Positions 1-64,000 of a stretch of 64,000 nt of DNA are shown in pieces. The DNA comes from Escherichia phage EC.P1. The DNA lies in sequence record PQ657772.1; one strand, given 5' to 3'. Every line of letters begins with the position of its first letter. The stretch's first letter is position 1. Made by a program: the position numbers and the translations under genes. The notes below the pieces were generated by a model. That model was not told the origin of the DNA. It made no database searches and worked only from the letters and a program-made list of their open reading frames with translations.

Positions 1-288
1 AACATCAATATACAAATATACATCATTGAATTTATAAGTTAAGCAACCGTACTCAAGAAAATCAGAGCAAATAATTGATGAGTTTTTTCTCGTCTCTGCG
101 TAATGCATCTTGATATTCTTTTCACGCATAAGTAATTCGAACTTTGCACTAAACTTGCCACCAGCAAGATAGTTAGTATTAGGACGTTTGTAACTTGCAA
201 CTGGTCGGTGGGATGATGTAAAGTATTTTTTTGTGAATCGTTTATGTTTAGTGAAATATTCTTGATAGAACTTACTTCTTTTATTCAT
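1..288 (-). CDS. hypothetical protein (partial; C-terminal part lies beyond window start)
   Basis: ATG at 288..286 with GAGG RBS; frame open for 96 codons to position 1 (MNKRSKFYQEYF...); absent from ORF track because no stop in window. Confidence 0.5.
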   Translation of the reverse strand, partial: MNKRSKFYQEYFTKHKRFTKKYFTSSHRPVASYKRPNTNYLAGGKFSAKFELLMREKNIKMHYAETRKNSSIICSDFLEYGCLTYKFNDVYLYIDV

Positions 289-365
289 GAGTACCTCAAT
301 TAAATCGCTGTAAAATTGTACATTATAAAATGATTAAATAAAGTATAACACAAGGAGATTTTATC

Positions 366-1490
366 ATGTTACCTTTCGTATTGTTATTTGATTATGGGAA
401 CGAAAAACAAGAAAGTTCTTATGATGTTAGTGTATATGGAAACAATAACTACATTTTAAATAAACAAACTGGAAACCTTTTTGCATCCGGTGCTGCGGCA
501 TTCATGGGTGATAACACAGTTAAGTATTATATTACCCAAATAGAATCAAATGTTCATAGCTGTGAGATAGGTTTCCTATCATCATGGATAATTAAGAAGG
601 ACAAAACTGTTTTCATTTTAGGAAACAAAAGCAGTATTGGATTAACTGATTCGACAACATCATGGTTCGAAATTACAAACTTATTTTCTGCTGTTCCTGA
701 AATATGGGACAACCTATTTGAATGTAAAGTTCAATTGGGATATAACTGCATACGTGTTATGACACCACTAGGATCAATATATGCGATTGGTACAAACACT
801 TATGGTGCATTGGGTACTGGTACTACATCCTCATCCACTTCGTTCGTTAAAAGTGGTGCTGTGGATGCTGTACGCATGGAATCAACAGAACGTTCAGTGT
901 TCTATCAAAACAGTTCTGGACAATGGTTTGGATGTGGTGATAACACATATGGTATACTAGGTCTAGGAACTACCGCTAGTCGTGTAAACTCATACACCGC
1001 ACCAGTATGGACTAATGCAGAAGCTGTTAGCTTCTCTAACCGTGGAATCATATACAGCCTCAATGGTACTCTATACTCATGTGGTGACAAAGTTAATGGT
1101 CAGCTAGGGGATGGATATACACAAAGCATAGACGCAGCCAGGAGCACACCATACACCATAGGAACCGCATTCCAAATTGGTAAGGCAATAACATCAGCTA
1201 CACAAGCATCAGCCAACGTATTCATTGGTAAAGATAATAAGTTCTATGGTACTGGTAGTATTGCTGCTGGTATAAATGGTAGTACTAGTGCTGCATTAAG
1301 TAAAGTTACTGCGTTATCAGCAGCACTACCACCTGACATTACATACAATGATATTATAACATTCAATACAGGGACCGTAACTTTTATTCAAGCAAAAGGA
1401 CAACTATATTATGTTGGTAGAAGAACTTACATAGATAATAGTTCAGACGTTACCACACAGTTCAGTGTAATTGGTGGCTTAGATAATTAA
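366..1490 (+). CDS. RCC1-like repeat (beta-propeller) protein
   Basis: 374 aa; AGGAG RBS; repeated G-x-N/D-x-x-G-x-L-G-x-G glycine-rich blades; one of only two + strand genes. Confidence 0.7.
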   Translation: MLPFVLLFDYGNEKQESSYDVSVYGNNNYILNKQTGNLFASGAAAFMGDNTVKYYITQIESNVHSCEIGFLSSWIIKKDKTVFILGNKSSIGLTDSTTSWFEITNLFSAVPEIWDNLFECKVQLGYNCIRVMTPLGSIYAIGTNTYGALGTGTTSSSTSFVKSGAVDAVRMESTERSVFYQNSSGQWFGCGDNTYGILGLGTTASRVNSYTAPVWTNAEAVSFSNRGIIYSLNGTLYSCGDKVNGQLGDGYTQSIDAARSTPYTIGTAFQIGKAITSATQASANVFIGKDNKFYGTGSIAAGINGSTSAALSKVTALSAALPPDITYNDIITFNTGTVTFIQAKGQLYYVGRRTYIDNSSDVTTQFSVIGGLDN

Positions 1491-1496
1491 AATTAA

Positions 1497-1527
1497 TCCA
1501 GTACTATTATAGTACTGGATTTTTTAT
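1497..1527. terminator. palindromic hairpin terminator (CCAGTACT-ATTAT-AGTACTGG) with T-run
   Basis: 8-bp perfect stem plus TTTTTTATT directly after stop of 366..1490; abuts stop of 1527..1898 on the other strand. Confidence 0.65.
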
Positions 1528-1898
1528 TATAACATACGTTTTTTACGAATAGTATTGTGGATATTTTTTAAGTAGTTCACACCTTTACACAACCCATAAA
1601 ATACACCAGCACATACACCAAATGCAGGTATCATACATGCAAACATCGTTATCAATTCCCACATCTCCATACCATCTTGATTCGGTCCAAGGTCAAAGAT
1701 AACAACCAAAACCAAACCTGTGATACTTAGCATATAATATGCCATGAAGATAATAAAAGAAACAATACCAACATCAGAGCGAACTGAATTTAGCATATTA
1801 TATACTGGGGTTACACAGAAGTAATACAATAACCAAATCAAAGAACCTAAACTAAACACAATAATAGTAATGATTGAAAATATTTCACGATAACTCAT
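1527..1898 (-). CDS. small multi-pass membrane protein (family A, tandem array copy 1)
   Basis: 123 aa, hydrophobic helices, basic C-terminal tail; first of 7 tiled paralogs. Confidence 0.65.
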   Translation of the reverse strand: MSYREIFSIITIIVFSLGSLIWLLYYFCVTPVYNMLNSVRSDVGIVSFIIFMAYYMLSITGLVLVVIFDLGPNQDGMEMWELITMFACMIPAFGVCAGVFYGLCKGVNYLKNIHNTIRKKRML

Positions 1899-1899
1899 T

Positions 1900-2262
1900 T
1901 TAGTTCCTCTTACCTAAACGCTCATGGATTTCGGAAATCTTATTATACATCCATGCCAGCAACTCAACGGATGCACAGAGAATAACCACACACAGTGTTA
2001 GTGAACATACCATAATACCAAATGTTATAAAATTCGAACTCGATGTTAATAATGCAACCAGCATTAGAATAAAACCAAAATTGAATGCTGTACTCAACAC
2101 AGTATATGCTGGACTATATCTCCTTTGTATTACATCATATATATTTGATAATGGTCGCTTATGGAAGTACTTCCCAATGCACACGAATGCATTCAGTGAG
2201 AAGATAAATGTATACGCCATTACCATTAATTGACCAATAAAAGAAAATTCAATATTATTCAT
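1900..2262 (-). CDS. small multi-pass membrane protein (family A)
   Basis: 120 aa; hydrophobic; tiled 1 bp after neighbour. Confidence 0.65.
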   Translation of the reverse strand: MNNIEFSFIGQLMVMAYTFIFSLNAFVCIGKYFHKRPLSNIYDVIQRRYSPAYTVLSTAFNFGFILMLVALLTSSSNFITFGIMVCSLTLCVVILCASVELLAWMYNKISEIHERLGKRN

Positions 2263-62448: not shown

Positions 62449-62451
62449 GTA

Positions 62452-63141
62452 TTAGTCCAGTTTAAGTTTATTGAGACAATAGGAGATTTGGATAGCTTCA
62501 CGTGCTGCATCATACAGAGGGTGATGTAATTCCAAACCATTAATACCACATTTTTCTACATACTTCACGAATTTAGCTAACTGCACTGACACAATCTCAT
62601 CCATTTCGGTGCGAGCTTCTTCATTCAATAAACGCTTCAGGGTTCGTGCGTTTTCAGGAGCATCATATTTCCACAAATCACCAACATTCAATAGTTTTAA
62701 GTGATTAGCTTGTAAAATACTACAGTCGAAGTTGCAGCCATTTCCCCAAATTGAATGTTCAACCTCTTTACCATAACAATCAAAACGGATATCTTTCCAG
62801 AAATCGACAATACCATTAGAAGTAAAGATTTGTTTGGATTTACCATTAGGACCGTACAATTCTGGTGCAACTAGTGCCATAGTACTGGCAACTTCAGCAT
62901 ATGCATTAGGATATTCCTTCTGACATGTATTCATCCAGAAATCCATTGCACCTGCATCTGATTTCAGCCCAGCGTTGACTTGTGCTTGGTATGGTAACTT
63001 AACATATACAAATTGTCTGATATCATGTTCAGGTTTACTTGGAACAACTACTGCTGCATAATTTGGAATAATAATATCATAACCAGAGTTTTCAGGAGTA
63101 CCGAGAGCTTCAATATCAACACTAACATGACGGCGTTTCAT
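62452..63141 (-). CDS. DnaQ/DEDDh-type 3'-5' exonuclease (DexA-like)
   Basis: 229 aa; Exo I VSVDIEALG, Exo III HHPLYDAAREA. Confidence 0.55.
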   Translation of the reverse strand: MKRRHVSVDIEALGTPENSGYDIIIPNYAAVVVPSKPEHDIRQFVYVKLPYQAQVNAGLKSDAGAMDFWMNTCQKEYPNAYAEVASTMALVAPELYGPNGKSKQIFTSNGIVDFWKDIRFDCYGKEVEHSIWGNGCNFDCSILQANHLKLLNVGDLWKYDAPENARTLKRLLNEEARTEMDEIVSVQLAKFVKYVEKCGINGLELHHPLYDAAREAIQISYCLNKLKLD

Positions 63142-63162
63142 ATTTCGTTCCTTATCTGTATA

Positions 63163-63212
63163 TTAAAAAAGAGTGCGTTTCAATAAGAACATTATATTGA
63201 AAACGCACTCTT
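63163..63212 (-). terminator. intrinsic terminator (long near-perfect inverted repeat + U-run)
   Basis: 17-18 bp arms AAGAGTGCGTTT(T)CAATA, 9-nt loop, T6 on - strand, then AAGGAA RBS of 62452..63141. Confidence 0.6.
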
Positions 63213-63222
63213 GTGTCAACTA

Positions 63223-63918
63223 TTACTTGTTAGCTTTTTCAGCAATTTCACGAAGAGTATCTTCAAGTTCATGAGAGAGTTTTGCGATTTCAATCTTAGC
63301 TCGCTCACGCTCTTCTTTACCTTTCTTCTCTTCAATCAGTACTGCTTCGATGCTATCGATCATTGTTTTGTGTACATTACGCAATGTTTTAATATCCACG
63401 ATACCACGATTATTTGCCTTAGCAGCATCCAACATGTTAGTTGCTACCATTTTAGAGTTTACTTCGAGTAAACGGTTAGTTTCATTGTCAATCAGATTAC
63501 CCAACTCATTGTCTTTACGTTGACGTTCGGAAATCAACTGTTCAGCCAATTGTGATTTCCATGCTGGAATAACAACTGATTTCAAATCCTCAAACTTAGA
63601 AACAGTGTTGAGGTTTACTTTCTTCATACTCATCAGGCGAGGACCGCTCAGTTCACACATCATGATAAGACGACGAATCTTATCTTCCTGTTTAGAAAGA
63701 GCTTCACAAATCATCTTTTGCTCCTGGATTGCAAAAGAATCAACGTCAGGGTTCGCTTGCATTGCTACCAATTCAGCATCTTGTGCTTTGGTAACTTCTT
63801 CCAACTCAACTAACGTATCACGCAGTTCAAAGAGATAGTTTTTGTTTTCGTTGTAAGCAGTGTCTAGCCATGCACATTCCCCATGCTGGCGGTTAATACC
63901 AACCTGAAGAGTGTTCAT
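63223..63918 (-). CDS. coiled-coil protein
   Basis: 231 aa, long heptad-like helices. Confidence 0.6.
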   Translation of the reverse strand: MNTLQVGINRQHGECAWLDTAYNENKNYLFELRDTLVELEEVTKAQDAELVAMQANPDVDSFAIQEQKMICEALSKQEDKIRRLIMMCELSGPRLMSMKKVNLNTVSKFEDLKSVVIPAWKSQLAEQLISERQRKDNELGNLIDNETNRLLEVNSKMVATNMLDAAKANNRGIVDIKTLRNVHKTMIDSIEAVLIEEKKGKEERERAKIEIAKLSHELEDTLREIAEKANK

Positions 63919-64000
63919 GATTTCATCAATTTGTTCTTTACTGTTTTTGTACTGATCGCCAACTTTCTGTTTAGCATTAACAAAAAGTTTTTTGACCCAG
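63915..64000 (-). CDS. hypothetical protein (partial; N-terminal part beyond window end)
   Basis: Frame open from window end to TGA 63917..63915, which overlaps ATG of 63223..63918. Confidence 0.4.
   Translation of the reverse strand, partial: GSKNFLLMLNRKLAISTKTVKNKLMKS

Follow-up and report, generated by a model that had tools for sequence, protein, structure and literature searches.

The stretch analysed here, referred to as the window, comprises 64,000 bp of Escherichia phage EC.P1 (PQ657772.1), in which 143 open reading frames (ORFs) were scanned. Its identity is about 98% to Escherichia phages WPEC5 and vB_Ec-M-J, against about 82% to the PBECO4/121Q/G17 group. The source group is Asteriusvirus, Rak2-like jumbo myoviruses with genomes of 350-385 kb. 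Most genes of the window are small orphans, and nearly all are encoded on the minus strand. The recognisable ones encode a sigma70-family factor, a C5 methyltransferase, DenV, TelA, an RCC1-like protein and HNH/NUMOD4 endonucleases, and there are five tRNAs. The subject of this analysis is the palindromic hexamer AGTACT, whose enrichment in this DNA is real, robust and under selection, and which was undescribed in the literature searched, within the incomplete coverage of that search.

The window contains 169 copies of AGTACT (2.6 per kb), while 100 dinucleotide-preserving shuffles gave 18.07 ± 4.53 with a maximum of 34. The expectation was 21.6 under an order-0 model and 67 under an order-3 Markov model, and the z-score of AGTACT is the highest among all single-strand hexamers. 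The initial annotation had described a several-fold over-representation from counts made by eye, with 13-15 copies in each of two 5-kb segments; exact counting gave 14 at 15-20 kb and 13 at 50-55 kb, and the effect over the whole window is larger than had been claimed. The copies are evenly spread, with 7-16 per 4 kb, and are distributed as follows:

1..64000, no strand assigned: AGTACT copies (n = 169), 149 in ORFs in all three frames and 20 intergenic

Among the sites in window genes, the reading frames are represented in the proportion 62/49/30, and there are 2.6 sites per kb of coding and 3.0 per kb of non-coding DNA. A concentration at regulatory positions, which had also been proposed, is not seen in the window as a whole: non-coding DNA makes up 10.5% of the sequence and holds 20 of the 169 sites (11.8%), and only 6 of the 37 strong promoter-like sites carry the hexamer. 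The proposal does hold for the terminal repeat, outside the window. Palindromes are strongly avoided in the window, as the initial annotation had said of phages in general, and AGTACT stands out against this background. No copy at all was found for 28 of the 64 palindromic hexamers, including GGTACC, CGTACG, CTGCAG and CAGCTG, for which the order-3 Markov expectations are 7-12 each. Likewise, the tetramer GCGC is absent from the window (57 expected) and occurs about 6.8 times per kb in E. coli, the reverse of the contrast seen for AGTACT.

Under codon-aware null models the ratio of observed to expected copies is far from 1. Shuffling of synonymous codons within the window genes gave 39.7 ± 5.7 copies and shuffling of codon order gave 22.8 ± 4.8, against 149 observed; in the late structural genes of the nearest complete genome, 88 copies were observed against 29.2 ± 4.4. 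Calculated from the means and standard deviations, the codon-aware nulls are missed by 13-19 standard deviations. Moreover, 65 of the 126 Ser-Thr dipeptides of the window are spelled AGT-ACT (17 expected from codon usage), and the other frames also exceed expectation: frame 1 realises 29 of its 73 opportunities, where 5.9 would be expected, and frame 2 realises 53 of 117, where 11 would be expected. Ser-Thr is itself inflated as a dipeptide (126 versus 78 expected), whereas Thr-Ser stands at expectation (77 versus 78). AGT and ACT are the most-used codons for Ser and Thr, respectively. In the late genes, where 67 of the 88 sites are in frame 0, AGT is chosen for Ser in 74% of cases when ACT comes next and in 31% otherwise. 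An artefact of codon usage or dipeptide composition was ruled out by both shuffles, in early and late genes, and by the presence of sites in all frames. The frames, the dipeptide spelling, the inflated Ser-Thr and the failure of the codon-aware nulls therefore mean that the signal acts on DNA, and its strength suffices to shift codon choice as well as protein sequence.

The information is confined to the six bases. The flanks carry less than 0.5 bit, with none beyond ±1: C stands at -1 in 54% of the window sites and G at +1 in 42%, while G at -1 is disfavoured (9%). The form CAGTACTG occurs 42 times. The flanks are symmetric within noise according to chi-square tests on flank counts, and the wider sequence contexts of the window sites are diverse. 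Such symmetric flanks and the strict 6-bp footprint would fit duplex recognition by a symmetric protein. Among the one-mismatch classes in the window, eight of nine occur at 0.93-2.64 times expectation and the remaining one, AGGACT/AGTCCT, at 0.63; AGTACA/TGTACT reaches 2.6 times expectation, so that mismatches at the outer positions are mildly enriched and those at the inner positions are neutral. The deamination product AGTATT stands at 1.12 times expectation and no Vsr-type signature was found among the one-mismatch neighbours. An origin through Vsr-like biased repair or deamination was accordingly rejected, no neighbour showing the expected depletion.

The 12-bp palindromes pointed out in the initial annotation are real, although their coordinates were off by 0-15 bp and one copy had been overlooked. 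There are six rather than five copies of TTCAGTACTGAA, at 35972, 38215, 38335, 42672, 55531 and 56516. The extended palindromes of the window are:

35972..35983, no strand assigned: 12-bp perfect palindrome TTCAGTACTGAA
2163..2174: extended palindrome of 12 bp
38213..38228: extended palindrome of 16 bp
38334..38347: extended palindrome of 14 bp
42669..42686: extended palindrome of 18 bp
55531..55542: extended palindrome of 12 bp
56516..56527: extended palindrome of 12 bp

The comparison with phage G17 (85.7% identity over 44.5 kb) showed that 99 of 127 aligned AGTACT sites are conserved (78%), whereas the values are 48.5% for all hexamers and 52.3% for the flanking hexamers, and a codon-position-aware background predicts 49 conserved sites out of the 127. 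Identity per position is 0.89-0.98 within the hexamer and about 0.87 outside it, with 0.83-0.84 at the ±1 flanks, and third-codon positions are 0.90 identical inside AGTACT sites versus 0.75. This pattern of substitution indicates purifying selection on exactly six base pairs. Over a greater distance, 38 orthologue pairs of vB_Ec-M-J and RaK2 (26 kb, 61% amino-acid identity) contain 63 and 64 sites, respectively, of which 29% are at identical positions, versus 14% for other hexamers; the density is therefore maintained with partial positional conservation and turnover. AGTACT thus behaves as a selected signature word in the manner of the uptake signal sequences (USS) and DNA uptake sequences (DUS), its density being kept between diverged genomes with positional turnover and in all frames.

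The distribution of the hexamer in samples of other genomes is as follows:

G17: 142 copies in 50 kb, 16.9 expected, enriched
RaK2: 100 copies, 13.4 expected, enriched
GAP32: 64 copies, 10 expected, enriched
CBB: 64 copies, 10.45 ± 3.2 expected, enriched
Serratia phage BF: 66 copies, 7.05 ± 2.5 expected, enriched
PA5oct (Pseudomonas relative): 4 copies, 13.5 expected, not enriched
T5 (same host, unmodified DNA, terminal repeat): 7 copies, 9.9 expected, not enriched
E. coli K-12: 6 copies in 100 kb (3 per 50-kb sample), 4.16 ± 2.1 expected (second sample, dinucleotide shuffles)

The enrichment in G17, RaK2, GAP32, CBB and BF is thus 6- to 9-fold, and four genera are concerned, namely Asteriusvirus, Alcyoneusvirus, Mimasvirus and Eneladusvirus. 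The sampled E. coli DNA has about 0.06 AGTACT per kb, near the dinucleotide expectation, and the phage is about 45-fold denser. Literature searches, incomplete in coverage, found no description of the word, or of ScaI, in connection with jumbo, Rak2-like or Asteriusvirus phages or with over-represented phage palindromes, and none was found in the papers on CBB, PA5oct, RaK2, fEgEco12 and Sharanji that were searched.

In the whole genome of vB_Ec-M-J (378,573 bp), 1,125 AGTACT sites were found; the genome-wide figures are from per-locus counts, and the positional analysis covered part of the loci. At least 1.9 sites per kb are present in every block of 25-50 kb, and the tail-fibre, baseplate, capsid and replication genes are no exception. 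With an average spacing of about 350 bp across the genome, the sites are more evenly placed than a Poisson process would give, the dispersion index being 0.4-0.7 in most regions (counts per 2-4 kb).

The densest region is the 21.5-kb direct terminal repeat of vB_Ec-M-J, with about 6.6 sites per kb (11.3 in non-coding and 4.1 in coding DNA). Here 36 of 53 -10 boxes have AGTACT at an offset of -27 (n = 21) or of -7/-8 (n = 20), 10 of them at both offsets, and no recurring offset to -10 boxes was seen in the terminal repeat on the opposite strand, which was used as a control. The aligned consensus reads AGTAC-TTGACA in RaK2 or AGTAC-TTGCAA in Asteriusvirus, followed by N9 and AGTACTG-TATAAT-gtTTTACAT, so that the upstream AGTACT overlaps the -35 box by its last T, while the AGTACT downstream abuts the -10 box. 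An immediate-early promoter can be written as AGTACTTGCAA-N10-AGTACTGTATAAT. The architecture AGTAC-TTGACA-N9-AGTACTG-TATAAT is common to RaK2, 121Q and vB_Ec-M-J, and when viral contigs were scanned for the exact pattern, nearly all hits were Rak2-like contigs of 345-371 kb; RaK2 itself has seven copies within 11 kb. Pairs of AGTACT 20-22 bp apart are over-represented in early regions only. The promoter cassettes in the terminal repeat are paralogous.

As a side observation, the terminal repeat (OQ718158.1, 1-21,525) holds about 53 very small genes, all oriented from the left end towards the interior. Every one of them has a GC hairpin and a strong sigma70 promoter of its own. This layout recalls the pre-early first-step-transfer region of T5.

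In the window, a promoter match was defined as TTGACA-N16-18-TATAAT with at most one mismatch in total. There are 37 such strong sigma70-like matches, and six of them carry AGTACT as TTGAC(A/T)-N9-AGTACTG(a)TATAAT, which bears out the earlier remark that the hexamer stands beside the -10 box of several promoters. The spacer aaatagttc is common to three of these six. All 37 near-consensus matches are on the minus strand and none is on the plus strand; transcription is essentially unidirectional over the 64 kb. The hexamer was also rightly placed in a terminator, which had been set at 1497..1527. The stem of its hairpin (1495-1521, -15.7 kcal/mol, z = -5.7) is formed by two AGTACT copies, at 1500 and 1511, and the T-run extends to 1527. 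The regulatory features of the window that contain AGTACT are:

1495..1527, plus strand: intrinsic terminator between convergent genes, with a 12-bp stem AUCCAGUACUAU/AUAGUACUGGAU and then a U-run
3990..4030, minus strand: promoter-like stretch ttgacAGTACTacactatggtAGTACTataact, with AGTACT at 3998 and 4014, 16 bp apart
7592..7619, minus strand: sigma70-type promoter TTGACA-N9-AGTACTG-TATAAT, in which AGTACT abuts the -10 box
18956..18983, minus strand: sigma70-type promoter TTGACA-N9-AGTACTG-TATAAT
22918..22945, minus strand: sigma70-type promoter TTGACA-N9-AGTACTG-TATAAT
39226..39254, minus strand: promoter TTGACTaaatagttcAGTACTGaTATAAT, with a perfect extended -10 via TG, directly upstream of tRNA-Ser(ACU)
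40586..40614, minus strand: promoter TTGACTaaatagttcAGTACTGaTATAAT, paralogue of the promoter at 39226
41008..41035, minus strand: promoter TTGACTaaatagttcAGTACTG-TATAAT

The pair at 3998/4014 lies 31-47 bp upstream of an ORF starting at 3966, and a further AGTACT stands 27 bp upstream of the promoter 39226..39254, at 39261. More than 85% of the window sites are intragenic, evenly spread and have no accompanying promoter or terminator signal. The idea of an operator or promoter element is thus supported in part, by the fixed offsets at 36 of 53 promoters of the terminal repeat and at six window promoters, but given the intragenic majority, which lacks promoter or terminator signals, an operator cannot be the whole explanation. 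An element confined to promoters was rejected, because only six of the 37 window promoters carry the hexamer and the sequence logo is uninformative beyond ±1.

Apart from these, a minus-strand cassette, gggTTGACTtcggtcagcccttttt(g/c)TATAATcatttcatca, recurs at about 4833-4862, 5416-5445, 10039-10068, 12802-12829, 13581-13610 and 17175-17204. It consists of a GC hairpin and a T-run terminator, the stem of which holds the -35 box of the next promoter. The promoters of this cassette are without AGTACT. It resembles the promoter-early stem-loops (PeSL) of T4-type phages.

Outside the window, AGTACT enrichment is lacking in two adjacent stretches of vB_Ec-M-J that lie immediately inward of the left terminal repeat. 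In the first (OQ718158.1, 21,388-26,695), which consists of 24 tandem paralogues of about 70 aa, a single AGTACT occurs in 5.3 kb, the neutral level; recent tandem duplication was rejected as the cause, the paralogues being only about 35% identical. The second (OQ718158.1, 28,764-37,330; 8.6 kb) contains mostly unrelated genes and 0-1 AGTACT. Instead, this island has 49 copies of AGTACA, versus 3.1 expected (16-fold), all on the sense strand and in three frames, and no TGTACT. The orthologous island of G17 (MK327931.1, 333,213-344,190) has sharp borders, with 8, 4, 0, 0, 0, 0, 0, 0, 0, 6 and 7 AGTACT in successive kilobases, and its core contains 43 AGTACA and no TGTACT. Outside the island there is a slight but consistent sense-strand excess of AGTACA, also in a block of minus-strand genes (23 versus 17), and the antisense variant is about 2-fold enriched as well. 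The regional exceptions argue against a uniform mutational drive and for selection on function.

Two proteins encoded in the window are of note here:

25339..26307, minus strand: sigma70-family factor with regions 2 and 3 detected, given as context only
51819..52679, minus strand: DNMT3-like C5 cytosine methyltransferase of 286 aa

The methyltransferase aligns end to end with the catalytic domains of mammalian DNMT3A/B (E ~1e-23), which are its best solved-structure matches, and no further cytosine methyltransferase is present in the window. A small enzyme of the Dam family (PF05869) is the other methyltransferase; as far as is known, the characterised members of this family are GATC-specific. 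In RaK2, the DNA was found to be CpG-methylated by bisulfite sequencing, and only two putative methyltransferases were reported (PMC3622015). The C5 enzyme of the window was rejected as the writer of AGTACT, being DNMT3-like and of the CpG type, which matches the CpG methylation of RaK2. Scans of the 143 window ORFs with Pfam and PHROG for DNA-binding folds gave nothing usable.

The symmetry of the hexamer, the selection on six base pairs, the promoter phasing shared across genera, the even spacing, the restriction to one clade and the contrast with the host point to a word of duplex DNA that is read by a symmetric factor. We tentatively favour a composite reading, possible rather than probable, in which AGTACT would be a lineage-specific 'self' hexamer serving both as an early-promoter operator and as a chromosome-wide mark. 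The reader would be a symmetric, probably dimeric, sequence-specific duplex-DNA factor, most likely encoded by the phage. Immediate-early sigma70 promoters would present it with two AGTACT at fixed positions, about two helical turns apart, and a factor bound to such a pair could occlude or modulate the contacts of RNA polymerase in competition with sigma70. The early-promoter copies would then be operators for temporal control, plausibly for the shut-off of immediate-early transcription, and the operator role is the most economical reading of the early-promoter pairs. The approximately 1,000 further intragenic copies would make the phage chromosome a high-avidity target, with about 45 times the site density of the host, and the chromosome-wide role might be architectural, protective or recruiting, through marking, coating or bridging of phage DNA.

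Several observations weigh against this composite reading. No helix-turn-helix or ribbon-helix-helix Pfam family was found in the 143 window ORFs, the rest of the genome not having been scanned per protein. The 'DNA binding protein' (34400-34852), so annotated in a relative, was not accepted as the reader, as it belongs to a PHROG of unknown function that is detectable in two genera only. Uninformative flanks around a footprint of 6 bp are more typical of enzymes such as methyltransferases and nucleases than of classical operators, which span 12-20 bp. About 2 AGTACT per kb are also found in the late structural genes, which are highly expressed, and this makes a simple role as an intragenic roadblock or silencer unlikely. 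The asymmetric AGTACA of the 8.6-kb island, present on the sense strand only, is not explained by a symmetric dimer. Moreover, the duplication of promoter cassettes accounts in part for the recurrence of the promoter architecture in a single genome.

A bolder proposal, which we regard as rather unlikely, is that AGTACT is an identity tag by which a phage protein selectively coats, bridges or compartmentalises phage DNA, exploiting the difference of about 45-fold in site density from the host, and times the immediate-early shut-off through the paired sites. 'Self' DNA would in this way be set apart for transcription, replication and protection in jumbo phages that have no nucleus, and the AGTACA island would be a segment that is exempted from the system or read differently by it.

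Among the rival explanations, it is unlikely, though worth weighing, that AGTACT is the substrate of an enzyme, that is, a phage methyltransferase, a nicking enzyme or a restriction-like endonuclease. It might then act as an epigenetic or strand-break mark comparable to Dam-GATC in E. coli, and distinguish replicated from unreplicated DNA, gate early promoters by methylation, or provide nicks for recombination-dependent replication or clamp loading. The sharp edges, the six invariant bases and the flanks of less than 0.5 bit speak for it, selection on 6 bp being typical of Type II-like recognition, as does the position in phase with promoters, which resembles that in Dam-regulated promoters. 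The density of GATC in E. coli is close to one per 350 bp, and that of AGTACT in the phage is near this value. The genome also encodes the Dam-family N6-adenine methyltransferase (PF05869) and more than 10 HNH endonucleases. However, of the two putative methyltransferases of RaK2, one is accounted for by CpG methylation and the other belongs to the Dam family, known so far for GATC specificity, the annotation of the nearest complete genome lists no MutH-, MutS- or SeqA-like genes, and the level of AGTATT gives no signature of deamination or repair. DNA of phage fEgEco12 was cut as predicted in silico by ten enzymes, ScaI not being among them (PMC13070987), and is therefore not hypermodified. 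A signal for replication or recombination is improbable. As the start of a DnaG-type primase, or as a helicase-nuclease or topoisomerase II site, the palindrome would serve both strands where forks or ends can move in either direction, and the even, genome-wide placement of sites on both strands at sub-kilobase spacing agrees with this. In 66% of sites a G or A follows at +1, which produces CTG or CTA, and DnaG-type primases use these triplets; the strand-specific AGTACA island near the left end would fit the passage of a fork in one direction; and the geometry A↓GTAC↓T could correspond to the 4-bp-staggered cut of a type II topoisomerase. Nevertheless, 3-5 nucleotides are enough for the known primases, which do not make an enrichment necessary, the highest density and the exact promoter phasing have no rationale in replication, and the GTAC core is G-Y-R-C and not the G-R-Y-C of the gyrase consensus core. 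Homology breakpoints are also no nearer to AGTACT than random positions are (median distance 135 bp versus 127-130 bp), and on this result a recombination or mosaic junction and the boundary of a mobile cassette were both rejected.

That an Enterobacterales protein binds AGTACT and is recruited or titrated by the phage is distinctly improbable. The enriched phages all infect Enterobacterales (Escherichia, Klebsiella, Cronobacter, Pectobacterium and Serratia), the Pseudomonas phage PA5oct is not enriched, and immediate-early promoters must work before any phage protein exists. Moreover, the SlmA-binding site of E. coli, GTGAGTACTCAC, is a 12-bp palindrome with the same AGTACT core. However, GTNAGTACTNAC occurs 0-1 times and GAGTACTC 0-2 times per locus of 47-64 kb, and GT at -3/-2 is found in 5% of half-sites, which is chance. 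Mimicry of SlmA sites was rejected on these flanks. T5 has the same host without being enriched, and we know of no host protein recognising bare AGTACT. A reading at the level of RNA or single strands, with AGUAC(U/A) in transcripts or AGTAC on the non-template strand as the signal and the palindrome as a special case, is highly improbable. It draws on the sense-only AGTACA of the 8.6-kb island and its G17 counterpart and on the slight sense-strand excess elsewhere. Against it, the flanks of AGTACT are symmetric within noise, palindromes are only 1.6% of hexamers, which makes an RNA motif that is palindromic by chance unlikely, the promoter copies lie upstream of transcription starts, and antisense AGTACA is enriched outside the island too. 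Finally, a by-product without function, arising from codon or dipeptide usage, mutational bias, biased repair or the spread of repeated cassettes, is scarcely credible. The prominence of AGT and ACT as codons, the preference for frame 0 in late genes and the paralogy of the terminal-repeat cassettes would agree with it, but the codon-aware nulls fail and the choice of AGT depends on a following ACT. In addition, sites occur in all frames and in non-coding DNA, in diverse contexts and with conservation at synonymous positions, two adjacent conserved regions lack the enrichment, and no neighbour shows the depletion left by biased repair.

Several known systems share features with AGTACT. The Dam/GATC system of E. 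coli and phage P1 (Dam, SeqA, MutH and P1 pac) likewise uses a sharp-edged palindrome every few hundred bp, with copies in the -35/-10 regions of particular promoters, where they act as switches. However, the GATC tetramer is near chance, whereas the AGTACT hexamer is about 8-fold above chance and reshapes codon and dipeptide use; AGTACT also has no known cognate methyltransferase, and no SeqA/MutH-like reader appears in the annotation of the nearest genome. The proteins p6 of phi29 and TF1 of SPO1 are abundant phage proteins that coat the chromosome, with sites at genome ends and early promoters, and switch early transcription off; these sites match the density peak of AGTACT in the terminal repeat and the immediate-early promoters. 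Yet p6 responds to bendability, and TF1 to hydroxymethyluracil-containing DNA as well as to loose sites; neither depends on an exact hexamer selected throughout coding sequence, unlike the case of AGTACT, and no homologue of either was identified here. Chi, KOPS and the uptake sequences USS/DUS are, like AGTACT, words above chance in genes, in all frames and with positional turnover, but they are 8-12 nt long, asymmetric and strand-polarised, whereas AGTACT is a 6-bp viral palindrome that is also found in promoters. A polar motif of the Chi/KOPS type was rejected, given the perfect palindrome and its symmetric flanks; only the separate AGTACA island is strand-specific. The C1 operators of P1 and the MotA boxes of T4 likewise recur as short elements with a fixed place in promoters of one temporal class, but they number tens per genome and are confined to promoters, whereas AGTACT has about 1,100 copies, more than 85% of them intragenic. 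SlmA sites have the same central hexamer, but their outer GTG/CAC is absent or at chance in the phage, with G at -1 in 9% of sites. The Type II restriction-modification site of ScaI/Eco255I is the same 6-bp word with sharp-edged recognition; phages normally avoid restriction sites, however, and no cognate pair was identified, although no search for an R.ScaI homologue was made.

Selection across four genera, together with the spelling of half of the Ser-Thr dipeptides as AGT-ACT, implies an important undescribed process at the level of DNA in a group of phages that is now being developed for therapy. The hexamer provides a handle, in the form of a 6-bp probe with about 1,100 sites per genome and a defined promoter architecture, on the organisation and marking of chromosomes of 350-380 kb in jumbo phages that form no nucleus and on the control of immediate-early promoters. 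Rak2-like phages should be exquisitely sensitive to ScaI-type restriction unless AGTACT is protected. Moreover, AGTACT can serve as a simple in silico marker of the clade in metagenomes, and recoding or synthetic-genome work on Rak2-like phages would have to respect it.

Two minor observations concern codon use. In the late structural genes of vB_Ec-M-J (OQ718158.1, 144,600-191,600), GGTACT (Gly-Thr, GGT-ACT) occurs 53 times on the sense strand versus 8.5 expected, and AGTACC has only 7 copies in the same region. This strand-specific excess of a GTACT-containing word in highly expressed late genes is probably codon-driven. The other observation is a tRNA gene of the phage, given as context and not proven to be part of the system:

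39124..39215, minus strand: tRNA-Ser with anticodon ACU, which decodes AGU, the codon that makes up the first half of AGT-ACT

This tRNA is identical in G17, and an unrelated tRNA-Ser(GCU) stands in its place in vB_Ec-M-J. With its unusual anticodon, tRNA-Ser(ACU) may be a compensation for, or a consequence of, the codon bias driven by AGTACT.

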